The notes beneath the pieces were generated by a model. The model saw only the letters and a program-made list of their open reading frames with translations, searched no databases and was not told the DNA's origin. The translations under genes and the position numbers were made by a program. A stretch of DNA of 38,375 nt from a virus (Duplodnaviria; Heunggongvirae; Uroviricota; Caudoviricetes), in IMG/VR virus record IMGVR_UViG_2541047847_000005. One strand, given 5' to 3'. Position 1 is the first letter of the stretch, and every line of letters starts with the position of its first letter. Shown here piece after piece: positions 1 to 38,375 of this stretch.

Positions 1-1026
1 ATGAAAAAGATGATGATAGCCACACTGGCTGCCGCCAGCGTGCTGCTTGCCGTTGCAAATCAGGCGCATGCTGGCGCGACGCTTGATGCCGTTCAGAAAA
101 AAGGTTTTGTGCAATGCGGGATCAGTGATGGATTACCTGGGTTCTCTTATGCCGATGCTGACGGTAAGTTTTCAGGTATTGATGTAGATGTTTGTCGTGG
201 TGTTGCCGCTGCTGTATTCGGTGACGATACGAAAGTGAAATATACCCCGCTCACTGCAAAAGAACGCTTCACCGCTTTACAGTCAGGGGAGGTGGATTTG
301 CTCTCCCGTAATACGACCTGGACTTCATCTCGCGATGCCGGGATGGGAATGGCATTTACTGGCGTCACTTATTACGACGGCATTGGCTTCCTGACGCACG
401 ATAAAGCGGGGCTAAAAAGCGCGAAAGAACTGGATGGCGCTACCGTCTGTATTCAGGCGGGGACTGATACCGAACTCAACGTCGCCGATTACTTCAAGGC
501 AAATAATATGAAGTACACGCCAGTAACCTTCGATCGCTCAGACGAATCAGCGAAAGCTCTGGAATCAGGCCGCTGTGATACTCTGGCCTCGGATCAATCA
601 CAACTGTATGCCCTACGCATCAAATTAAGCAACCCAGCTGAATGGATTGTCTTACCGGAAGTTATCTCTAAAGAACCACTTGGGCCGGTAGTTCGTCGTG
701 GCGATGATGAATGGTTCTCGATTGTACGCTGGACGCTTTTCGCCATGCTGAATGCTGAAGAGATGGGCATCAATTCCCAGAACGTCGATGAAAAAGCGGC
801 TAATCCAGCAACGCCTGATATGGCACATCTGCTGGGTAAAGAAGGCGATTACGGCAAGGATCTGAAGCTGGATAATAAATGGGCCTTTAACATCATCAAA
901 CAGGTGGGTAACTACTCGGAAATTTTCGAGCGTAACGTAGGTTCAGAAAGCCCGCTGAAAATTAAACGTGGGCAAAATAATCTCTGGAATAACGGCGGTA
1001 TTCAGTACGCGCCGCCCGTGCGTTAA
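1..1026 (+). CDS. yhdW: periplasmic substrate-binding protein of an amino-acid ABC transporter (YhdW/AapJ-like)
   Basis: 341-aa ORF starting at position 1; N-terminal Sec signal peptide MKKMMIATLAAASVLLAVANQAHA; resemblance to E. coli YhdW recalled from memory, not searched; followed by a permease gene. Confidence 0.8.
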   Translation: MKKMMIATLAAASVLLAVANQAHAGATLDAVQKKGFVQCGISDGLPGFSYADADGKFSGIDVDVCRGVAAAVFGDDTKVKYTPLTAKERFTALQSGEVDLLSRNTTWTSSRDAGMGMAFTGVTYYDGIGFLTHDKAGLKSAKELDGATVCIQAGTDTELNVADYFKANNMKYTPVTFDRSDESAKALESGRCDTLASDQSQLYALRIKLSNPAEWIVLPEVISKEPLGPVVRRGDDEWFSIVRWTLFAMLNAEEMGINSQNVDEKAANPATPDMAHLLGKEGDYGKDLKLDNKWAFNIIKQVGNYSEIFERNVGSESPLKIKRGQNNLWNNGGIQYAPPVR

Positions 1027-9329: not shown

Positions 9330-10241
9330 TTATGCCTCCAGCCCGTTAATCTGTGGCGTCGGCTCAGTCAGCCATGAAGGCGCGGCATTGCCTGTTGGCT
9401 CATCCGGCAGGTCAAATGTGGAGCGCAGGCTACGCGCTGTGCTTTCCAGTTGACAGACCAGGCCTGCCATGAAGTCTCTGGGGGTATCAATCATGTTTTC
9501 AGCACAATATGCGCACAGCGTCTCAAAAGCGCTGGACAGTCGAACGGCGATGGCAGATTCCGCCTCAACCGCTAACGCGGTCACTTCTGCCCGCAGTTTC
9601 TTCACCTCTTCATCAGGCTCAGGTGGCTGAATACGGGATTTCTTCTCCAGTCTGGTGGAGAGTGAGTCTATTTTTTCATTTTTGTCGGCGAGTACGCGCT
9701 GTTGTGCTGCGTTGGTTTCGCGCGCTTCGCGCAGGGCCTGACGCAATTCACGTACTGACATGCGATCAACATCGTCAAGCGTCAGTCCGGCAACTGTGCC
9801 ACCGTCGGCCAGTTCAGCAAGGTCGTCGTCATCTTCAGCAACAAGTTCAAATAATTTTGCCTTACCTAAAAGCGACAACGTTGTCGCTTTTGGCTCTAGT
9901 TTTGGTGAAAGGTATTTCAAAGATGCTTTCATCATTCGTTGTGCTGCGCGCACATGCAGACCAAGTTGTTCTTCTACAATTCCAACAAAGTCCCCGTGAG
10001 GTTCATTTTCTTTGAGAATAATAAGTCGTTTACCTGCTTCCAGCATGGCCTCAGCGCTCTGTGCCATATAAAACCGAGCCTCATGAACTATGCGATCACG
10101 CTCATAGGGCTGACCATCGCCAAACTGCTGCATGATCTCCATACGATGCTGTGTCATGGCGTTCAGACTGACATTGAGATCATCCGACAGCGGTACCTCG
10201 GCGTTCAGTTCAGTGTTAATCGGTGATTTGGTGCGTCCCAT
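9330..10241 (-). CDS. hypothetical early protein (303 aa), acidic and coiled-coil rich
   Basis: AAGGAG 6 nt upstream of ATG at 10241; lies between the regulators and the transposase. Confidence 0.5.
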   Translation of the reverse strand: MGRTKSPINTELNAEVPLSDDLNVSLNAMTQHRMEIMQQFGDGQPYERDRIVHEARFYMAQSAEAMLEAGKRLIILKENEPHGDFVGIVEEQLGLHVRAAQRMMKASLKYLSPKLEPKATTLSLLGKAKLFELVAEDDDDLAELADGGTVAGLTLDDVDRMSVRELRQALREARETNAAQQRVLADKNEKIDSLSTRLEKKSRIQPPEPDEEVKKLRAEVTALAVEAESAIAVRLSSAFETLCAYCAENMIDTPRDFMAGLVCQLESTARSLRSTFDLPDEPTGNAAPSWLTEPTPQINGLEA

Positions 10242-10251
10242 TTATTACTCC

Positions 10252-10560
10252 TTACAAACGACTACCTGAAATGACACGTTGGTTGATTTCGTTAATGCGA
10301 TCCTGTGCACGTGCCATCTCGTTACTGTGGGCCATAGCGATCTGCAGTAACTGGATGCCCGGCGCGAAACGCCCGTTTTCCAGTTTCAGGGCCAACCCTT
10401 CTTCAATGAGGGTGTTGAGTGCCCGGTTGATGTTTGCCGGTGACTCGTGCAGTGCTGCCGCCAGTTCACCGTTGGAAATACCGTTCAGGGCATGACCGCG
10501 CAGCGCTTTGAGTACCCGGAGGATGCGACTGCCGGAGCTTGAAACATTCGTCTTACTCAT
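10252..10560 (-). CDS. winged-helix DNA-binding protein (putative early regulator)
   Basis: ORF 10252..10566, preferred start ATG at 10560; segment ILRVLKAL...ISNGELAAALHESPANINRALNTLIEEGLA looks like a wHTH. Confidence 0.45.
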   Translation of the reverse strand: MSKTNVSSSGSRILRVLKALRGHALNGISNGELAAALHESPANINRALNTLIEEGLALKLENGRFAPGIQLLQIAMAHSNEMARAQDRINEINQRVISGSRL

Positions 10561-10612
10561 CTGCATACCTCTTTTGCGATATGTGATAACCTTTTACAAA
10601 GACTCAAAATCT

Positions 10613-10801
10613 TCAGGCTGCCTGAGCTGTTGATTTCAGCCCCAACTTCACGGCGATTTCATGGGATTTACCGTAACGGGCTTTGGTCTGCCCATTGAGA
10701 ACGCGGTATACCTCATTGCGGTTGTAGCCGTTTTCTTCTGCCCAGCGGGTGAAAGTGATCCCGCGCTGGCGGAAGAGAGCTTTGACTTGTTCTGCAGTCA
10801 T
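10613..10801 (-). CDS. ner: Ner-like DNA-binding protein (Ner/Nlp family), first gene of early operon
   Basis: 62 aa; pattern ALFRQRGITFTRWAEENGY...LNGQ...G..IA..LG resembles Mu Ner / E. coli Nlp; AGGAG 6 nt upstream of ATG at 10801. Confidence 0.7.
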   Translation of the reverse strand: MTAEQVKALFRQRGITFTRWAEENGYNRNEVYRVLNGQTKARYGKSHEIAVKLGLKSTAQAA

Positions 10802-10901
10802 CGTTGTCTCCTTTGTTGATGCAATGATGTTTGCCTTATGTGTGATAGATTATGGTGCAGATTACCTCACCAGTCAACTTAAAGAGTGCAGAAAAACTCA
10901 C
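10802..10901. promoter_or_regulatory. divergent promoter/operator region between ner-like and repressor genes
   Basis: 100-bp AT-rich gap between divergent regulator genes; contains three GTGCAGA / TGCAATGA-like repeats. Confidence 0.4.
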
Positions 10902-11240
10902 ATGATCGGGTTACGTATTAAAGAAGAAAGAGAGCGTCTATCTCTTACACAGCAAGGGTTGGCTGATGCTATAGGTGTGGCAAAGAGAACTTTCATTGAT
11001 TGGGAAAAAGATCGCACTTCTCCTACTGCAGTGCAGTTATCTGCACTATCAGAAATCGGTGTAGATATTTTGTATGTAGTTACTGGGGTGCGGAGTCAGC
11101 CTGTTGTTGCACCTTATGTGTCACAAGAAAAGAAAGAGTTAATGGATGCATTCGACGAAATGAGCCCCGAACAACGGAGGGCAATTCTTGAGGTCGGCAA
11201 AGTCTTCATTCAACCCAAACCAAGCAAACTCGCAGGCTGA
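10902..11240 (+). CDS. XRE-family HTH repressor (prophage immunity repressor)
   Basis: ORF 10749..11240, preferred start ATG at 10902; N-terminal LRIKEERERLSLTQQGLADAIGVAKRTFIDWEKDRTSP is a Cro/C1-type HTH; no LexA-like peptidase domain; low GC. Confidence 0.7.
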   Translation: MIGLRIKEERERLSLTQQGLADAIGVAKRTFIDWEKDRTSPTAVQLSALSEIGVDILYVVTGVRSQPVVAPYVSQEKKELMDAFDEMSPEQRRAILEVGKVFIQPKPSKLAG

Positions 11241-11326
11241 TTTTGACCTGGACACAAAGGACAGGTGGTTGATCTGGATGCTTTCAGAAAACATCGCCAG
11301 TGACATAGTGGAAGTTGTTTGGTTTA

Positions 11327-11357
11327 CCGGAAAGCATTGTGCTTTCCGGTTTTGTTT
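11327..11357 (+). terminator. rho-independent terminator downstream of repressor gene
   Basis: perfect 10-bp stem CCGGAAAGCA / TGCTTTCCGG with 3-nt loop followed by TTTTGTTT; abuts the stop codon of the convergent methyltransferase gene. Confidence 0.6.
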
Positions 11358-12121
11358 CAGAAGTTGCAGATTACCAGTTCACGGCGCGGCGTGGATTTCC
11401 CCGCCAGACTGTAGTTGATGTTCACTGTCTGTATGTTCAGTCCAGTGAACACCTCGCGCATCTGTGGGATATCGTTCACCGAAATTATCATTTTTCCTCT
11501 GATGCACCGGGCCAGCTCTGCCAGCCGCGAGTAGTTCCCTTCAGGAAAATCCACACCATAGCCTTCCGTACCCAGGTACGGTGGGTCGCAGTAGAACAGT
11601 GTGTGCGGACGATCATAACGCTCAATGCACTGTTGCCAGTCCATGTGTTCTATGACTGTTCTGGAAAGCCGCAGGTGTGCTGCTGACAGTTCTTCTTCAA
11701 TACGCAGCAGGTTGAAGCGTGGCGGGGATGTGGTGGAGGTACCGAAGCTGTGCTCTGCCACCTTGCCGCCAAACGCCTGCTTCTGAAGGTAGTAGAACCG
11801 TGCCGCACGCTGGATATCCGTCAGTGTTTCTTCCGGGGTGATCTGCAGCCATTTGTAGATCTGACGGCTGACCAGCGCCCATTTGAACTGGCGGACAAAT
11901 TCTTCCAGGTGATGCTTTACCACCCGGTACAGATTCACCAGTTCACCGTTGATATCATTGATGACTTCGATCTTGCCGGGTGTCTTAAGAAAATAGAGCG
12001 CTGCTGCCCCACAAAACGGCTCCACATAACATTCATGCGCCGGAAACAGCGGCAGGATGTGTTTTGCCAGGCGACGTTTGCCACCAATCCATGGAACGAT
12101 GGGTAATGTCTTCATTTTCAT
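11357..12121 (-). CDS. orphan Dam-class (D12) N6-adenine DNA methyltransferase
   Basis: 254 aa; motif I FCGAAALYF and motif IV DPPY; no adjacent restriction endonuclease gene. Confidence 0.85.
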   Translation of the reverse strand: MKMKTLPIVPWIGGKRRLAKHILPLFPAHECYVEPFCGAAALYFLKTPGKIEVINDINGELVNLYRVVKHHLEEFVRQFKWALVSRQIYKWLQITPEETLTDIQRAARFYYLQKQAFGGKVAEHSFGTSTTSPPRFNLLRIEEELSAAHLRLSRTVIEHMDWQQCIERYDRPHTLFYCDPPYLGTEGYGVDFPEGNYSRLAELARCIRGKMIISVNDIPQMREVFTGLNIQTVNINYSLAGKSTPRRELVICNF

Positions 12122-12312
12122 AATCTGTAAGCCTTTTACAATTATTAAAAATATGGCAGGCTAGTCTGGTCTCGCGAGACTGACTGAACCTCGGTCGGCT
12201 CACAGCCACTTCTGTGGGACGATGGCCAGCCCGGTGGGTCCGAAGCACCGGGCTGGTCGTTCTTTCATGATGCGGCAGGGATAGTGGGATTTCTGTTAAT
12301 GTGGTTTAGGGA

Positions 12313-12528
12313 TTATCCGGGGCGATTTTCTGACCTTATCCGGTCCAGGGCATAAGTAATACCTTCTGCAAAAACAGAAGTATCAAACTGCTTTTGTATT
12401 CCCTGAAAATGAAAAGCGGCACGACAGACACTCAGTTCTCCGCGATGTAACCGGATAATATCTTCCAGAACATTGTTCACTGCTTCAGCACGGCGCTGAT
12501 GTTCTGTTAACGTTAATCGGGGATTCAT
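12313..12528 (-). CDS. hypothetical small protein (71 aa)
   Basis: ATG at 12528 with AAGGAG 6 nt upstream; about 190 bp upstream of the methyltransferase gene. Confidence 0.5.
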   Translation of the reverse strand: MNPRLTLTEHQRRAEAVNNVLEDIIRLHRGELSVCRAAFHFQGIQKQFDTSVFAEGITYALDRIRSENRPG

Positions 12529-12529
12529 G

Positions 12530-12931
12530 ATGCACTCCTTAAATGATGATTTTTATGCACTCACCGGCAAAATATTCTGCCGATTACTGAACACGCATCC
12601 GGCACCTCAGGTTTTGATTTATTCTGGTTTTTTCGATATCCCGGACCAGGTTGATCACGACCAGAAAAAGTGCCGGTATTTTATTGATACGCTGATATGG
12701 CTTCGGGATAACAGCTATATTCGTTACTCTCAGTTGCTGGCTGTGGGAGCGGCTGATGTCGTCCTCACGGAAAAAACGCTCCGTCTGCTCAATGCCACGC
12801 CGACCCTTCTGCAGCCCCGGCCCGCACCATTTAAAGAGTCACTTCTGGATGCAGTAAAAACCGGTGAAAATGCAGTCATCGCTGAATGCGTATCCCGGAT
12901 TATGCGTTACGTGTTTAATGAACGTAAGTGA
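12530..12931 (+). CDS. hypothetical protein (about 133 aa)
   Basis: ORF 12527..12931; about 400 bp open on plus strand with no competing ORF; ATG at 12530 has GGGGA 6 nt upstream; start overlaps the start of the divergent 71-aa gene. Confidence 0.4.
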   Translation: MHSLNDDFYALTGKIFCRLLNTHPAPQVLIYSGFFDIPDQVDHDQKKCRYFIDTLIWLRDNSYIRYSQLLAVGAADVVLTEKTLRLLNATPTLLQPRPAPFKESLLDAVKTGENAVIAECVSRIMRYVFNERK

Positions 12932-13650
12932 GGTTTATCCGCTGTCTGCATAATCCCGATAGCCAGTGCGAGGGGAAGTAATTCCGGGGAAACTCTTTCA
13001 AACAGCGACTCCCATTCTCCTCTCGCCATCACTCTGTCCAGCCCGCCCCCCAGTTGCATTTCAGCAATCTTCCTGATTTCCCGGAACAACGCCGCTTTGA
13101 TCTCTTCGTGCTCAGCTTTATTTTCCGGTGTCAGAATGTATTCGTCGAAGAACCGGGGAGGCTGGTTAACGGGGAGCGTGTTCACCGGGATGTGTTCCTG
13201 TTTCCCGTACTTCGGGGCAGAAAAACATTCTGTTGGCTGACCGGTGAGTTTACGTAGCTCCTTCATGAGCAGCTCCTGATCGTAAACTGTCATCAGTGCC
13301 GCAATGGTGGCATGCAGTGCATCGGGCAGTATCCAGGGTTGCCGGCCCGTGGGGCATATAACATCCAGCAGCTCATTCGTCCGACAGATACGCTCCTCGC
13401 CGTATGACAACAGGCCCTGTCCCGTGTATTCCTCTAGCCTGATCACTGTGCCACCCCGTGGCTTCTGCCAGGTCGTCAGATCTTCGCCATTCATACGGCG
13501 CTCATTCTCCACGTCAGCAGCATCGACAATGACGCTGTTTCCGAGTTCCTGTTTCACCATCTCTTCTATCCGCGCCAGTACGTAACTTTTACCGCTGCCC
13601 ACAGGACCGGACACAGTGACAGTGATGACCGGATTCAGTGTGTGCGTCAT
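12907..13650 (-). CDS. P-loop NTPase/kinase-like protein of unknown function
   Basis: 247 aa; Walker A GPVGSGKS at residues 15-22; GAGGAG 8 nt upstream of ATG; not a recognisable Mu core gene. Confidence 0.6.
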   Translation of the reverse strand: MTHTLNPVITVTVSGPVGSGKSYVLARIEEMVKQELGNSVIVDAADVENERRMNGEDLTTWQKPRGGTVIRLEEYTGQGLLSYGEERICRTNELLDVICPTGRQPWILPDALHATIAALMTVYDQELLMKELRKLTGQPTECFSAPKYGKQEHIPVNTLPVNQPPRFFDEYILTPENKAEHEEIKAALFREIRKIAEMQLGGGLDRVMARGEWESLFERVSPELLPLALAIGIMQTADKPHLRSLNT

Positions 13651-13780
13651 ATCGTATTCTCCTCTGTGAATAATTCATCGTTTATCCTGCACATCCCGTA
13701 TCCCCGGCTCTCTTAACGCGCTTTAAAATCCTTCGCGCCCTGTATTTGTGATGCTGTCTCCACCAGACAAGGAGACACAC

Positions 13781-14131
13781 ATGAAAAACCTGAAAAAATT
13801 CATTCCCCCTGTTAAAAAACCTCGCCTCAGCGGCTGGCTGCTGACCTCAGTGCTGTTGCTGGGCACCATCGCTCTGGTCTCGCCACAGCAGTTGCCTGTT
13901 GTGATCTACAAGCTGGCACTCATCACGCTGGCAGCAGTGCTGGGTTACTGGCTTGACCGTTCGCTCTTCCCCAAAGCCCGTCCCGGTCAGTACCTGAAAC
14001 ATGACGACAGGCTGATGGCTGAAGGGCGTTTCCCGGTACAGACCGGCCTTCACCTGGTGTTTTCTGCTGCGTTAATCCGCCGTGCACTGATTGTTGCAGC
14101 GGTCTGTCTGGCTGTTGCGATGGGGCTTTAA
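13781..14131 (+). CDS. holin-like membrane protein (first gene of lysis cassette)
   Basis: ORF 13748..14131, preferred start ATG at 13781 with GGAGA 5 nt upstream; about 3 hydrophobic segments; immediately precedes the endolysin gene. Confidence 0.5.
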   Translation: MKNLKKFIPPVKKPRLSGWLLTSVLLLGTIALVSPQQLPVVIYKLALITLAAVLGYWLDRSLFPKARPGQYLKHDDRLMAEGRFPVQTGLHLVFSAALIRRALIVAAVCLAVAMGL

Positions 14132-14133
14132 TC

Positions 14134-14871
14134 ATGAACTGGCCGCAGATCACCTGGATTGTATGCATGTCCCTGAAACTGGCTTTCGAAGCCTTTAGGG
14201 TCTTCATCAGAACCGAACGCCTGTCAGTCCGCGCCGGGACCTTTCTGGTTCATATGGCACGGGTATTCTTTGTCGCAATGTTGCTCTGGTGTGGCGGCTT
14301 CTTCAGTCAGGCCCGCGCAGCGCAGCCTCCGCAGGCAGCGCTGCAGTATCGCGATGATGTGATCCGTAATGCCCGGCTTGAATGGGGACTGTCTGCGCCG
14401 GTGGCTGATTTCGCTGCGCAACTGCATCAGGAAAGCGGCTGGCGACCTGATGCGATCTCGCCGGTTGGCGCTCAGGGACTGGCGCAGTTCATGCCCGCCA
14501 CCGCCGACTGGATAAGTCAGTTGATGCCGGGGCTTAACAGCCGTGAGCCATTTAATCCGGCATGGGCCATCCGGGCGCTGGTCAGCTATGACCGCTGGCT
14601 GTGGCAGCGCGTCAGCGCCGCCAGTGACTGCGAGCGTATGGCCATGACACTGTCGGGCTATAACGGTGGTCTGGGCTGGGTACAGCGGGACAGGCGGCTT
14701 GCATCACAAAAAGGGCTGGACAGCACCCGCTGGTTTGGTCATGTCGCCACGGTGAATGCCGGACGCAGCACTGCCAGCTGGCGGGAGAACCGTCATTATC
14801 CCCAGCGCATCCTGTTCACGCTGGCCCCGCGTTATCTCTCATGGGGAGGGGCAAGCTGTGTGGGTACGTAA
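14134..14871 (+). CDS. endolysin, lytic transglycosylase (SLT domain) with N-terminal signal or SAR sequence
   Basis: motif HQESGWRPDAISPVGAQGLAQFMP typical of SLT catalytic region; hydrophobic MARVFFVAMLLWCGGFFSQA near N-terminus; alternative start ATG at 14254. Confidence 0.8.
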   Translation: MNWPQITWIVCMSLKLAFEAFRVFIRTERLSVRAGTFLVHMARVFFVAMLLWCGGFFSQARAAQPPQAALQYRDDVIRNARLEWGLSAPVADFAAQLHQESGWRPDAISPVGAQGLAQFMPATADWISQLMPGLNSREPFNPAWAIRALVSYDRWLWQRVSAASDCERMAMTLSGYNGGLGWVQRDRRLASQKGLDSTRWFGHVATVNAGRSTASWRENRHYPQRILFTLAPRYLSWGGASCVGT

Positions 14872-35130: not shown

Positions 35131-35701
35131 GCCATTACAACTCCCGCCACCGCTTGAGGGTGATATCAGTCTCAGGACGCTGGGAAGACTGGCAGGACGG
35201 CTGGATAACATCGACCTGAGCGTACTGATGGTCTTTCTCGTCGATATCGTCGACAGTTCCGCGCTGCCATGGCTGGGCGAGCAGTTCTCACTGTCTGGCG
35301 ATGGCTGGGAGCTGGCGGAATCGGACGATGTTCGCCGCATGCTTATAAAAGCAGCCATCGAACTGCACCGGTATAAAGGGACGCCGTGGTCAATCCGGGA
35401 AGTTATCCGCCGTTTTGGCTTTGGTGAAGTGGATCTGATTGAAGGCACAGGTCGTCTCAGTTACGACGGCAATCGCAGCTATAACGGACTGTTTGTTCAT
35501 GGAGATGCAGCCGCCTGGGCAGTTTATCGCGTTATTCTGAAACAGCCCATTACTAACGATCAGGCCGCGATGCTGCGTCAGACGCTGGCTGCATTTGCAC
35601 CGGCCCGCTGCCATCTGGCCAGCCTGGAGTATCAGTCTGTGGCCATTCGCTATAACAATACTGCCATCCATGATGGCAGTTATAACCACGGGAGCAGTTG
35701 A
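35123..35701 (+). CDS. tail protein I (P2 gpI-like)
   Basis: 192 aa overlapping J and the fibre gene. Confidence 0.7.
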   Translation: MTEPLQLPPPLEGDISLRTLGRLAGRLDNIDLSVLMVFLVDIVDSSALPWLGEQFSLSGDGWELAESDDVRRMLIKAAIELHRYKGTPWSIREVIRRFGFGEVDLIEGTGRLSYDGNRSYNGLFVHGDAAAWAVYRVILKQPITNDQAAMLRQTLAAFAPARCHLASLEYQSVAIRYNNTAIHDGSYNHGSS

Positions 35702-35703
35702 TT

Positions 35704-37299
35704 ATGGGAAACCTGAATGAAACAGAAAAGTGGGAAGAAAATATCTATCAACTGGAGACATCAGATCCGGTTCTGGGTGGTGCAGACGGGATATCAAATC
35801 GAGCCCCCCGGCAACTGGCAAACAGGACGAAATGGCTGAAGAAGAAAACGGAGGAAGCCGCACAGTCACTGGCTGAACACGTACGTTCCCGTAACCACCC
35901 GGACGCGACACTGACAGCTAAGGGGTTCACCCAACTGAGCAGTGCCACCAACAGCACCTCTGAAACGCTGGCCGCCACACCAAAAGCGGTCAAGGCTGCA
36001 TACGACCTGGCAGCCGGCAAGGCGCCTGCCAGCCACACTCACCCGTGGAGTCAGATAACGGGAGTGCCTGCGGCTTCACTGACGGCAAAAGGCACCGTAC
36101 AACTGAGCAGCGCCACGGACAGTCAATCAGAAACTGAGGCTGCCACGCCGAAGGCTGTGAAAATCGCGTATGATCTGGCCCGGGGAAAATACACAGCCCA
36201 GGATGCAACAACGACCCGTAAAGGGATCGTACAACTGAGCAGTGCCATCAACAACACGTCTGAAACGCTGGCCGCTACACCGAAAGCTGTCAAGGCTGCA
36301 TATGACCTGGCTAACGGGAAGTACACAGCCCAGGATGCAACCACGACACAAAAAGGGATAGTTCAGCTCAGTAGCGACACCAACAGCACTTCTGAAACAT
36401 TAGCTGCAACTCCAAAAGCGGTTAAAGCTGCATACGATCTAGCAGCCGGAAAGGCACCATCCAGTCATACACATCCCTGGAATCAGATCACTGGTGTGCC
36501 AACAGCTTCATTGACAGCGAAAGGCATCACTCAGCTCAGTAGTGCCACTAACAGCACGTCTGAAGTGCTGGCCGCTACACCGAAAGCTGTCAAGGCTGCA
36601 TACGATCTGGCAAACGGAAAACAACCGGCAGATGCCACGCTCACTGCTCTGGCAGGACTTGCCACTGCAGCAGATCGGGTGCCTTATTTTACCGGAGCAG
36701 ACCGCGCAGCGCTGGCAACCCTTACAGCTATTGGTCGCGCTATTATCGCTAAGGGCAGTATAAAAGATGTCCTCAATTACCTTGGTTTAGGAGAAGGCTC
36801 GGCGCTACCCGTTGGTGTGCCTGTTCCATGGCCCACCGCCACGCCGCCAGCAGGCTGGTTGAAGTGCGACGGGCGCGCCTTTACAAAAGAACAATATCCT
36901 GTTCTGGCCAGAGCCTACCCGACCCTCCGTCTTCCCGATTTACGCGGTGAGTTTATCCGTGGATGGGACGACGGGCGCAAAGTTGATACAGGACGTAAGT
37001 TGCTGTCCGCACAAGGGGCAACGCTGTTAAGAACAGCAATGCTGGATTATTATAACCAGGACACTACGGGAACCTCGGGGATAGTCGGCATGGGATTCAA
37101 CAATGAAGATTCCATTACAGACCTTCGTGAGGGCAGCTTTAAAATGCCGGACGGGACAACATTCAGCGATCCTGTCGTGGCAATGTCAGACAATGGTATG
37201 CAGGCTACTATTCTGACCTCTATCAGAAGCGGGTATGCGAAGGGTATCACTGTCAGACCCCGTAGCATTGCACTTAATTACATTGTGAGGGCAGTTTAA
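35704..37299 (+). CDS. tail fibre protein with 5 tandem fibre repeats and collar-like C-terminal domain
   Basis: ORF 35698..37299 (TTG at 35698, ATG at 35704 with GGGAG upstream); repeats of the form KG.TQLSSATNSTSETLAATPKAVKAAYDLA.GK; C-terminal PDLRGEFIRGWDDGR motif. Confidence 0.85.
   Translation: MGNLNETEKWEENIYQLETSDPVLGGADGISNRAPRQLANRTKWLKKKTEEAAQSLAEHVRSRNHPDATLTAKGFTQLSSATNSTSETLAATPKAVKAAYDLAAGKAPASHTHPWSQITGVPAASLTAKGTVQLSSATDSQSETEAATPKAVKIAYDLARGKYTAQDATTTRKGIVQLSSAINNTSETLAATPKAVKAAYDLANGKYTAQDATTTQKGIVQLSSDTNSTSETLAATPKAVKAAYDLAAGKAPSSHTHPWNQITGVPTASLTAKGITQLSSATNSTSEVLAATPKAVKAAYDLANGKQPADATLTALAGLATAADRVPYFTGADRAALATLTAIGRAIIAKGSIKDVLNYLGLGEGSALPVGVPVPWPTATPPAGWLKCDGRAFTKEQYPVLARAYPTLRLPDLRGEFIRGWDDGRKVDTGRKLLSAQGATLLRTAMLDYYNQDTTGTSGIVGMGFNNEDSITDLREGSFKMPDGTTFSDPVVAMSDNGMQATILTSIRSGYAKGITVRPRSIALNYIVRAV
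35908..36620 (+). repeat. 5 tandem imperfect repeats (about 35-45 codons each) inside the tail fibre gene
   Basis: recurring TPKAVKAAYDLA and QLSSATNSTSE peptide motifs; approximate boundaries. Confidence 0.6.
36889..36980 (+). repeat. left copy of 92-bp near-perfect inverted repeat inside fibre gene
   Basis: reverse complement of 38200..38291 with 1 mismatch; flanked by lower-identity homology from about 36811. Confidence 0.8.
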
Positions 37300-37913
37300 T
37301 GAGTAACACTGCAGTTCTGGATGAAAACGGTATCGCCACTGTAGCGGGCGATATCACTGTATATCACTATGACGAGGAAACCCGGGAATACACCTCATCC
37401 TCTGTGGAGTATCTCGCCCTTGGGGTGGGTACTCCGGCACATTCGTGCGCCGATGCACCGCCGGAGGCAATTTCGGGTTACGTGGTTTGCCGGACTGCCA
37501 CGCTGAACGGGTGGGAGCATGTGCCTGATCACCGCGGCGAGACGGTATACAGCACGGAGAACGGTAACCCCGTTCTGATTACCCAACCGGGTGATTACCC
37601 GGCGGACACCACCACAAAACAGCCAGCCACGCCATGGGATACCTGGAACGGTGAGGCGTGGGTAACCGATACTGAACGGCAGCGAACCGCAGAGCTGGAG
37701 ACTGCCAGACTGCAACGCCAGAAACGGGTGGATCAGGCGATGAAGTCCATCGACCTCATCAACCTCAAACTGCGGGCAGGTCGCAGTCTGAAACCAGAAG
37801 AAACGGCAAAACTGAACGCCGTGCTGGATTATATCGACGAGCTGAACGCACTGGATATCAGCACGGCACCTGAAATCAGCTGGCCGGAAGCGCCACTGGC
37901 ACTTGCCAGTTGA
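37299..37913 (+). CDS. tail fibre assembly protein (Tfa)
   Basis: 204 aa; TAATG overlap with fibre gene; C-terminal APEISWPEAP motif typical of Tfa chaperones. Confidence 0.75.
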   Translation: MSNTAVLDENGIATVAGDITVYHYDEETREYTSSSVEYLALGVGTPAHSCADAPPEAISGYVVCRTATLNGWEHVPDHRGETVYSTENGNPVLITQPGDYPADTTTKQPATPWDTWNGEAWVTDTERQRTAELETARLQRQKRVDQAMKSIDLINLKLRAGRSLKPEETAKLNAVLDYIDELNALDISTAPEISWPEAPLALAS

Positions 37914-37919
37914 ACGGTA

Positions 37920-38375
37920 TCACGCCGCCCTCACGATATAGTTAAACGCGATATTGCGGGGGCGGGTTATGTTAAAGAATGCTCCGTTTAATTCGGCTTT
38001 TGCGCGACTGTTTGTTCCACCCAGCATTGCGTACCACAAATAATCGCTACGGTAATTCCCCGCAAACACCTTATCGCCGCCATAGTCAATATTATTTCCG
38101 TTACTCATGTACGAGATATCAAGCGCAGAATCGTTATCGTCATGACCGCCGACCAGTGTACCTTTCTGCCATGAAAGCAACTTACGCCCCTCGTCAATCT
38201 TGCGCCCGTCGTCCCATCCACGGATAAACTCACCGCGTAAATCGGGAAGACGGAGGGTCGGGTAGACTCTGGCCAGAACAGGATATTGTTCTTTGGTGAA
38301 CGTAGCTCCGTTGCACTGTAACCAGCCTGCTGGCGGTGTGGCGGTGGGCCATGGAACCGGTACACCAACAGGCAA
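37920..38375 (-). CDS. alternative tail fibre C-terminal module on opposite strand (5-prime end beyond window)
   Basis: translation shares about 70 aa (PVGVPVPWPTATPPAGWL...PDLRGEFIRGWDDGRK) with the plus-strand fibre and ends with the same NYIVRA tail; ORF is open to the window edge. Confidence 0.6.
   Translation of the reverse strand: MPVGVPVPWPTATPPAGWLQCNGATFTKEQYPVLARVYPTLRLPDLRGEFIRGWDDGRKIDEGRKLLSWQKGTLVGGHDDNDSALDISYMSNGNNIDYGGDKVFAGNYRSDYLWYAMLGGTNSRAKAELNGAFFNITRPRNIAFNYIVRAA
38200..38291 (-). repeat. right copy of 92-bp near-perfect inverted repeat
   Basis: reverse complement of 36889..36980. Confidence 0.8.

Follow-up and report, generated by a model that had tools for sequence, protein, structure and literature searches.

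A variable cargo slot beside the holin gene of a BcepMu-type Escherichia coli prophage

A three-gene cassette fills a slot between the dam and holin genes

We analysed a 38,375-nucleotide stretch of viral DNA (IMG/VR record IMGVR_UViG_2541047847_000005), here called the window, and interrogated the genes lying between its immunity repressor and its lysis genes. The window represents a BcepMu-type prophage of E. coli, that is, a transposable phage of the genus Bcepmuvirus. Over 10500-14200, it shares 100% identity with E. coli K56-43-un and 96.6% with Escherichia phage PhiKM, and similar DNA is present in 636 of 5,426 complete E. coli genomes (~12%), ST131 strains included. An earlier reading of this DNA, made from the sequence only, had placed four open reading frames (ORFs) between the repressor and a holin-like gene. 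All four were found at the positions it gave, with an HTH_3 repressor and a PF13272 holin on either side. One of them encodes a Dam-family methyltransferase. The other three encode proteins of 71, 134 and 247 aa (p71, p134 and p247), the second of which had been given as 133 aa, a length that holds when counting from the second ATG, whereas the full ORF has 134 aa. These three genes, which we consider accessory cargo with a possible anti-phage role, and the edges of the slot that holds them are as follows.

12268-13709, no strand: inserted cargo cassette of 1,442 bp; homology to ten empty-site relatives ends at 12267 and restarts at ~13696-13710
12313-12528, minus strand: p71, a small, probably helical protein; phrog_4490, E 1.6e-52 (PHROG of unknown function)
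12526-12529, no strand assigned: CATG start-codon overlap of p71 and p134, which lie on opposite strands; read from the sequence
12527-12931, plus strand: p134, 134 aa; phrog_2266, E 6e-44 (PHROG of unknown function)
12907-13650, minus strand: p247, a mosaic protein, divergent from the holin; PHROG of unknown function
12221-12261, plus strand: strong conserved hairpin with a T-rich tail on the plus strand; -31.8 kcal/mol, z -4.7; the cargo is inserted just past it
13710-14131, plus strand: holin upstream region, from 13710 up to the holin start and presumed to be the late promoter region, and holin gene (13781-14131; PF13272, E 1.5e-41); right slot edge

Aligning the window to ten empty-site relatives, which carry ~36 nt in place of the cassette, revealed sharp junctions, and therefore the insert is 12268-13709 and holds p71, p134 and p247. 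The sequence-only reading had drawn the island wider, from 11241 to 13780, a span that does not stand, as Dam, a palindrome and the hairpin fall outside the true insert. Within the cassette, the p134 and p247 genes are convergent and their 3' ends overlap by 25 nt (12907-12931). Together with the CATG overlap at the 5' ends of p71 and p134, this leaves the cassette without intergenic DNA between its three genes.

Using the holin, we retrieved 80 related IMG/VR loci, mapped the window proteins on them, and counted the occupancy of the Dam-holin junction over the 61 relatives having both genes. The junction is empty in 32 of them, with a Dam-holin distance of 247-258 nt and no gene between, while 13 carry p247-family cargo and 16 carry other cargo. 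This comparison across related Mu-like prophages, suggested by the sequence-only reading, thus uncovers a variable hotspot. The complete cassette is present, with intact ORFs, in 475 of the 5,426 complete E. coli genomes (~9%), and about 100 further E. coli genomes keep the 5' part of p247 alone, under the RefSeq label "ABC transporter ATPase". The slot is a recombination-exchangeable cargo site, and the cassette is dispensable for the phage family.

The G+C content of 11241-13780 is 50.9%, whereas the window as a whole has 54.7%; segments of the same length reach values this low or lower in 11% of cases. Per gene it is 44.4% for p71, 47.2% for p134, 53.6% for p247 and 52.5% for Dam. The island had been described as AT-rich, which is clearly so for p71 and p134, but the shift of the region overall is modest.

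Lambdoid morons and lysogenic-conversion cassettes, such as lambda rexAB and P2 old, tin and fun, provide one comparison. Like them, the present cassette is accessory, dispensable, variable among close relatives, partly different in base composition and terminator-bounded. Unlike them, it has mixed orientations and overlapping 5' and 3' ends rather than a simple promoter-gene-terminator arrangement, and its autonomous promoters and its expression in the lysogen are putative. The proposal that this layout is that of a moron or defence-cargo locus is borne out to the extent that the slot is a variable hotspot across relatives, but a scan with PADLOC-DB v2.0.0, our source of defence models, gave no match at reporting thresholds for the three proteins. 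At the corresponding map position, 2-3 genes of unknown function lie between the repressor and the holin/SLT cassette in BcepMu (gp18-gp20; NC_005882) and KS10 (genes 11-12; PMC2628397). Those genes differ from the present ones, are all co-oriented with the repressor, and are not accompanied by Dam. A tblastn search with p71, p134 and p247 found no match in the Burkholderia phage records of the phage collection, BcepMu included. Variable accessory slots are already well known in temperate phages, and this slot behaves like them. That the three genes are accessory cargo in a variable hotspot is, in our judgement, very probable.

Other cargo in these slots is mostly uncharacterised and includes DUF2441, lipoproteins and membrane proteins. 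An NA37/YejK-like protein adjoins a weakly KwaA-like protein, and another protein weakly matches a CBASS-type two-transmembrane (2TM) effector, both matches having E ~8e-5. Since most of this cargo is uncharacterised, the signal of known defence systems in the hotspot is faint.

p71 and p134 form a divergent pair with overlapping start codons

The p71 and p134 genes overlap by their start codons on opposite strands, and the same CATG overlap is present in relative L081, in phage Midge and in phage ST147-VIM1phi7.1. Because of this overlap, each promoter must, from the geometry, lie inside the partner gene and face the other. Face-to-face promoters are known from the immunity switches P2 C/Cox and 186 CI/Apl. 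The p71/p134 pair shares with these two small divergent genes, convergent promoters and overlapping 5' transcripts, the latter deduced here from the CATG overlap. It differs from them in lacking sequence similarity, in being dispensable and located away from the immunity locus, and in that its promoters are predicted. The sequence-only reading had credited each gene with a Shine-Dalgarno sequence of its own. By eye, those of p71 (AAGGAG) and p247 (GAGGAG) are good and that of p134 (GGGGA) is moderate, but that of Dam is weak.

Homologues of p71 were found only in E. coli, apart from one of 29-31% identity in L081, while those of p134 extend to P2-like phages (30-32%) and Serratia (53%). The ratio of nonsynonymous to synonymous substitution rates (dN/dS) is 0.3-0.7 for p71, on few changes, and ~1 for p134 within E. 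coli, on 6-8 changes only.

By eye, the p134 family displays a winged-helix-like pattern (F..T..WL..NGYI ... LTEKGL.VLN) followed by a C-terminal helix, and p134 looks like a winged-helix DNA binder on this basis. Neither a winged helix nor DUF2513 gained support elsewhere: Pfam gave no match among 7 family members (E up to 5), the PDB profiles gave none, and the Foldseek result was empty. The label "DUF2513" comes from a UniRef name only and was not reproduced by profile searches. The annotation in Midge, which would make p134 an H-NS inhibitor like T7 gp5.5/5.7, was likewise set aside at an hhalign probability of 0.1-0.3%, a weak test as the templates were single sequences. A profile search of genome contigs with the p134 alignment gave no match.

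Natural variants separate the genes of the cassette. Relatives L074 and L077 carry a clean in-frame deletion of 318 nt in p134 with p71 and p247 intact. Relative L081 has p71-like and p134-like genes without a full-length p247, and an adjoining ORF of 102 aa resembles the p247 C-terminal extension. In L006 and L023, only the 5' part of p247 is present, beside different cargo. These variants argue against a three-component system and against toxin-antitoxin addiction. Thus, we rejected a single p71/p134/p247 system, and the earlier view of one island gives way to at least two independent units among the three non-Dam genes. A type II toxin-antitoxin module was rejected as well, since the genes are divergent, the p134 deletions keep p71 and p247, and fragments of p247 are found where the pair is absent.

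In other BcepMu-like relatives, p134-like genes are partnerless and lie downstream of the repressor in the same orientation. Such a position, downstream of the repressor and co-oriented with it, often holds genes expressed in the lysogen.

The p134 family also occupies the defence hotspot of P2-like phages

Homologues of p134 are present in the P2-like phages Midge, FSL SP-004 and ST147-VIM1phi7.1, each with a divergent partner of 63-64 aa and the CATG overlap. All 42 P2-like IMG/VR contigs retain the CATG overlap together with a partner ORF that is intact despite many substitutions. The portal gene gpQ adjoins the pair in every one of these contigs, and gpA is on the other side in all 40 that reach that far. 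Phages Midge and ST147-VIM1phi7.1 also place the p134 homologue between gpQ and gpA. This gpA-gpQ interval of P2 is the tin/old defence hotspot (PMC9122126, Rousset et al. 2022; PMC9519451, Vassallo et al. 2022). In this start-overlap arrangement, the p134 gene moves between hotspots of two unrelated temperate phage families.

The slot described here resembles the P2 hotspot in being a fixed site of a temperate phage that exchanges unrelated small gene sets, and the p134 family with a divergent CATG partner is found in both, at times beside an Abi-P2-type reverse transcriptase in the P2-like case. It differs in that the host phage here is a transposable BcepMu-type myovirus and in that the slot is bounded by Dam with its terminator-like hairpin and by the holin upstream region, not by cos. 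Moreover, the p71/p134-type pair consists of candidate defence genes only.

Two further genes were seen in the P2-like loci. A third small gene of ~90 aa (L004 44-316, Midge gene 047; L098-L139) separates the p71-type partner from the portal gene in almost every P2-like contig. As it is near-universal beside the pair, the pair may be part of a semi-conserved block of three genes near cos and not cargo that is exchanged freely. Directly adjoining the p134-like pair in Klebsiella phage ST147-VIM1phi7.1 is gp03 (L005 4556-5506), annotated "polymerase", which has the motif YVDD and resembles a reverse transcriptase of the Abi-P2 type. A gene of this kind is seen again in some 10 of the 42 contigs.

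p247 is a mosaic protein with a small P-loop-like N-terminal domain

The p247 protein is divided into the following parts, all encoded on the minus strand.

Residues 1-76 (window 13423-13650), minus strand: N-terminal mini P-loop domain; Walker A GPVGSGKS at residues 15-22
Residues ~100-135, minus strand: module M1; motif PWILPDALHAxIAAL..YDQELL..ELRK
Residues ~170-247, minus strand: C-terminal extension; a recurring module

The N-terminal domain consists of a strand, the GPVGSGKS motif, a helix, a strand and, at residues 68-74, a possible Walker-B-like strand of the form hhhhEE. Its profile matches the Walker A region of ABC nucleotide-binding domains (E 1e-5), with PDB profile alignments covering ~35 residues, while the Pfam P-loop scores of p247 are all below the gathering threshold. 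What p247 has in common with P-loop NTPases of the ABC and other ASCE types is residues 8-46, which can be aligned with the core (strand, Walker A, helix, strand) of the ABC nucleotide-binding domain. Unlike these enzymes, however, the p247 domain measures ~75 aa and is without signature motif, Q-loop and H-loop, and the remainder of an NTPase fold was not recognised in it. In some members of the family GKN replaces GKS.

Homologues of p247 with at least 64% identity are found in E. coli only and include variants of 141, 158 and 182 aa. A HMMER scan of 1.84 billion representatives yielded 52 clusters matching p247, most of them via residues 1-76 only. In these clusters the N-domain is always N-terminal, in proteins of 150-364 aa with differing C-termini, and by sequence reading short helical modules recur in differing orders. 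All these modules fall into PHROGs of unknown function. A profile search of genome contigs with the N-domain returned 4 loci. p247 thus belongs to a mosaic, phage-restricted family.

The genes of the cassette could be functionless passengers or decaying DNA, linked to a successful prophage that is common in E. coli, including ST131. The truncated and chimeric p247 forms (141, 158 and 182 aa), the recombination breakpoints inside the gene and the ~100 genomes with its 5' part only would fit this explanation, as would the p134 dN/dS of ~1, the deletion of p134 in some lineages and the near confinement of p71 and p247 homologues to E. coli. However, p247 has a dN/dS of 0.10-0.38, its N-domain is 40-57% identical across genera with ORFs intact, and strong Shine-Dalgarno sequences precede p71 and p247. 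In addition, the p134 family and its start overlap are kept down to 30% identity in all 42 P2-like contigs, each with an intact partner ORF. We therefore regard decay as quite unlikely. The genes are real and maintained, as indicated by the intact ORFs in 475 genomes, the p247 dN/dS and the intact P2-type partner.

A p247-family gene is directly divergent from the holin in all BcepMu-like carriers, including those of Salmonella and other relatives with holins of only 64-68% identity. In a Pseudomonas entomophila prophage, the N-domain is instead encoded upstream of HNH and terminase genes. The constant position beside the holin is consistent with prophage self-regulation, in which p71/p134 would be an auxiliary switch and p247 would modulate the late and lysis genes from beside the holin upstream region. 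This explanation gains from the convergent promoters implied by the CATG overlap, as in P2 C/Cox and 186 CI/Apl, and from the location of the cassette, which has a terminator-like hairpin on one side and the presumed late promoter on the other. On the other hand, half of the relatives have an empty slot and the same holin upstream region, so no cassette gene is needed for late expression. The pair is also found in P2-like phages, which have an unrelated switch of their own, p134 is deleted in L074 and L077, and no helix-turn-helix family in Pfam is significant for the p134 family. Self-regulation is, on balance, a rather unlikely account of the cassette.

Dam and the features around it belong to the phage backbone

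The minus-strand early genes of the window encode a transposase and DUF3102-like, IclR-like and Ner-like proteins and are followed by the plus-strand repressor. Beyond p247, the PF13272 holin gene leads to an SLT endolysin and the late genes. The features between the repressor and the cassette, besides the hairpin, are as follows.

10902-11240, plus strand: immunity repressor of HTH_3/Xre type (Pfam HTH_3, E 3e-7; RefSeq helix-turn-helix transcriptional regulator); left edge of the variable region
11326-11350, plus strand: intrinsic terminator of the repressor transcript; an 11-bp perfect stem, then TTTTGTTT; -18.5 kcal/mol, z -5.2
11357-12121, minus strand: orphan Dam-family N6-adenine DNA methyltransferase; PF02086, E 6e-29; TIGR00571; phrog_56, E 6e-101
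12169-12180, no strand: 12-bp perfect palindrome GTCTCGCGAGAC in the Dam upstream region; relative L025, which lacks the cassette, has the identical sequence

The methyltransferase exceeds the curated cutoffs of PF02086 (102 bits; cutoff 22) and TIGR00571 (117.4 bits; cutoff 114.85), while against the equivalog model of E. coli Dam, NF008152, which bears on its putative GATC specificity, it reaches only 68 bits (cutoff 441). Its translation, read directly, contains CDPPY, with the catalytic DPPY, and EPFCGAAA, corresponding to the FxGxG motif that binds S-adenosylmethionine. Of the 74 relatives scorable for Dam, 61 carry it, at 81-100% identity, and the gene is under strong purifying selection (dN/dS 0.04-0.23). 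Its treatment as a non-core island gene is contradicted by these figures and by its retention without the cassette. Dam is conserved backbone of the enterobacterial BcepMu-like clade, separate from the cargo. The phage, which has this Dam-family methyltransferase of its own, shows fewer GATC sites across the window than base composition predicts (110 observed, 147 expected).

The repressor terminator had been recognised correctly, including the T-run that follows its stem. The spacer palindrome and the strong hairpin also exist as described, but both are features of the backbone, present in cassette-free relatives, rather than of an island. The palindrome overlaps the likely Dam promoter and may be a candidate operator for the phage Dam. 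In the hairpin, the stem is kept and the loop varies in L025, L032, L049, L063, L064 and L070. In form the hairpin is like a terminator for plus-strand transcription, and it would keep rightward read-through out of the late (lysis) operon. An Rfam search over 10000-14500 gave no match.

Orphan Dam methyltransferases are a classic anti-restriction function. The cassette genes could accordingly be early lytic genes for anti-defence or host takeover that, with the neighbouring orphan Dam, act against restriction or other immunity. Besides the adjacency to Dam, this idea draws on the shared strand of p71, p247 and Dam, on the small, fast-diverging and phage-restricted nature of proteins with no recognised fold, and on the p134 dN/dS of ~1, which would fit an arms race. 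Yet Dam is kept independently of the cassette, so that the adjacency reflects the position of the slot and no linkage, and the conserved hairpin stands between p71 and Dam. In addition, genes of p134 type at other sites run in the same direction as the lysogeny repressor, and the P2-like pair resides in a hotspot known for defence, not anti-defence (PMC9122126). We consider an anti-defence role unlikely.

A compact restriction-modification-like or toxin-antitoxin system, with Dam as the protective component, p247 as the effector and p71/p134 as the controller, can be imagined from the adjoining methyltransferase, the size of p71, which is that of a controller (C) protein, and a weak PADLOC match of Dam to PD-Lambda-5_B (E 3e-16). 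Generic models of Type II and orphan methyltransferases fit Dam far better, however (E 6e-113), and Dam is retained in 32 cargo-free relatives. No nuclease gene lies beside it: its neighbours are the repressor and p71, or the holin in the 32 relatives. Pfam, PADLOC and NCBIfam revealed no nuclease or toxin motif in p71, p134 and p247. The genes are divergent or convergent and form no operon, and the persistence of variants without p134, or without p71 and p134, argues against addiction. Thus, such a system is very improbable, and in its specific form of Dam and cassette as a restriction-modification system it was rejected because relatives without the cassette keep Dam.

Between the repressor and Dam there is a second variable slot, which measures 116 nt and is empty here (11241-11356). 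In relatives, the gap ranges from 122 to 2010 nt. Cargo of 0.3-2 kb was seen in it in L025, L023, L049 and L072-L076, including the NA37/YejK-like protein paired with the weakly KwaA-like membrane protein, lipoproteins and p134-like genes co-oriented with the repressor.

A possible anti-phage role of the cassette

The evidence from borders, variants and relatives leads us to prefer the explanation that the slot, flanked by the conserved terminator-like hairpin past the Dam promoter region and by the conserved DNA just ahead of the lysis genes, holds two independent accessory units. The first would be p71/p134, in which facing promoters inside the partner genes would interfere with each other and so create a small switch, with p134 as its putative DNA-binding part. 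The second would be p247, a predicted nucleotide-binding protein that combines a constant P-loop-like N-domain of 75 aa with exchangeable helical C-terminal modules. Rather than serving replication or morphogenesis, the cassette genes would benefit the prophage or its host against other phages, via exclusion or abortive defence.

Several results weigh against an anti-phage role. No enzymatic or toxin domain was found in p71, p134 and p247 by Pfam, PADLOC and NCBIfam. PADLOC assigned no family to p71 and p134, and its best match for p247, to the P-loop region of SngB, has E 0.0098. A consensus promoter scan, complemented by reading, detected no convincing promoter for any of the three genes. 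No homology is detectable between the small partners of the BcepMu-type and P2-type pairs. The P2-like pair is always on the portal side and very widespread, and could be a semi-conserved phage gene set. The p134 dN/dS of ~1 and the loss of the gene in some lineages fit relaxed constraint as well as diversifying selection. Finally, among the other slot cargo, the 2TM-effector-like and KwaA-like matches are the only hints of defence.

The earlier statement that the three proteins carry no assignable motif is upheld for families, as Pfam, NCBIfam and PADLOC give none, with the Walker A motif of p247 as the only feature kept. Over the same databases and the PDB profiles, p71, p134 and p247 returned nothing beyond P-loop noise and this Walker A region. 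The structure prediction that had been proposed alongside profile searches gave models of low confidence: from shallow alignments, AlphaFold2 reached a predicted local distance difference test (pLDDT) score of 46.8 for p247 and 47.3 for p134, and the former leaves p247 with no usable fold. Foldseek, run on these models, found no meaningful match (E > 0.5, TM-score < 0.35). No paper naming p71, p134 or p247 came up when the literature was searched with their RefSeq protein accessions, and none for "DUF2513" either.

Taken together, accessory cargo in a variable hotspot with an anti-phage role is a reading that we place just short of even, and the anti-phage role of the cassette, taken by itself, is tentative. 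A more specific proposal is that p71/p134 would be a new self-contained two-gene module acting against phages or between them, in which the CATG overlap forces the promoters face to face as a bistable or interference switch and which has spread across BcepMu-like and P2-like hotspots, and that p247 would represent a phage-only mini-P-loop family whose shuffled modules serve as specificity or effector elements. This proposal is doubtful as a whole. What raises the locus above a routine variable slot is the conserved CATG overlap of a pair shared with the P2 defence hotspot and a modular mini-P-loop family with a fixed place beside the holin.

If either unit excludes other phages, the host range of phage therapy would be affected in clinically important lineages, and a slot of a Mu-type prophage would join the short list of mapped defence hotspots (P2, P4 and lambdoid). 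With its conserved start-codon overlap, the mobile two-gene unit also offers a clean case in which gene regulation by convergent promoters could be tested. Should no phenotype be found, the locus would be one more variable cargo region.

The ends of the window

At the left end, window 1-1026 (plus strand) is a host gene for a family 3 solute-binding protein (PF00497), which puts the left end of the prophage at ~1450-1800. In K56-43-un the flank is a different one, with codB next to the prophage, which fits a transposable phage that inserts randomly. At the other end, 35698-38375 contains genes for a tail fibre (533 aa) and for tail-fibre assembly (204 aa), while the other strand encodes the C-terminus of a second Collar-domain fibre (37920-38375). 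This layout matches an invertible host-range cassette like the G segment of Mu, and the window ends inside it.

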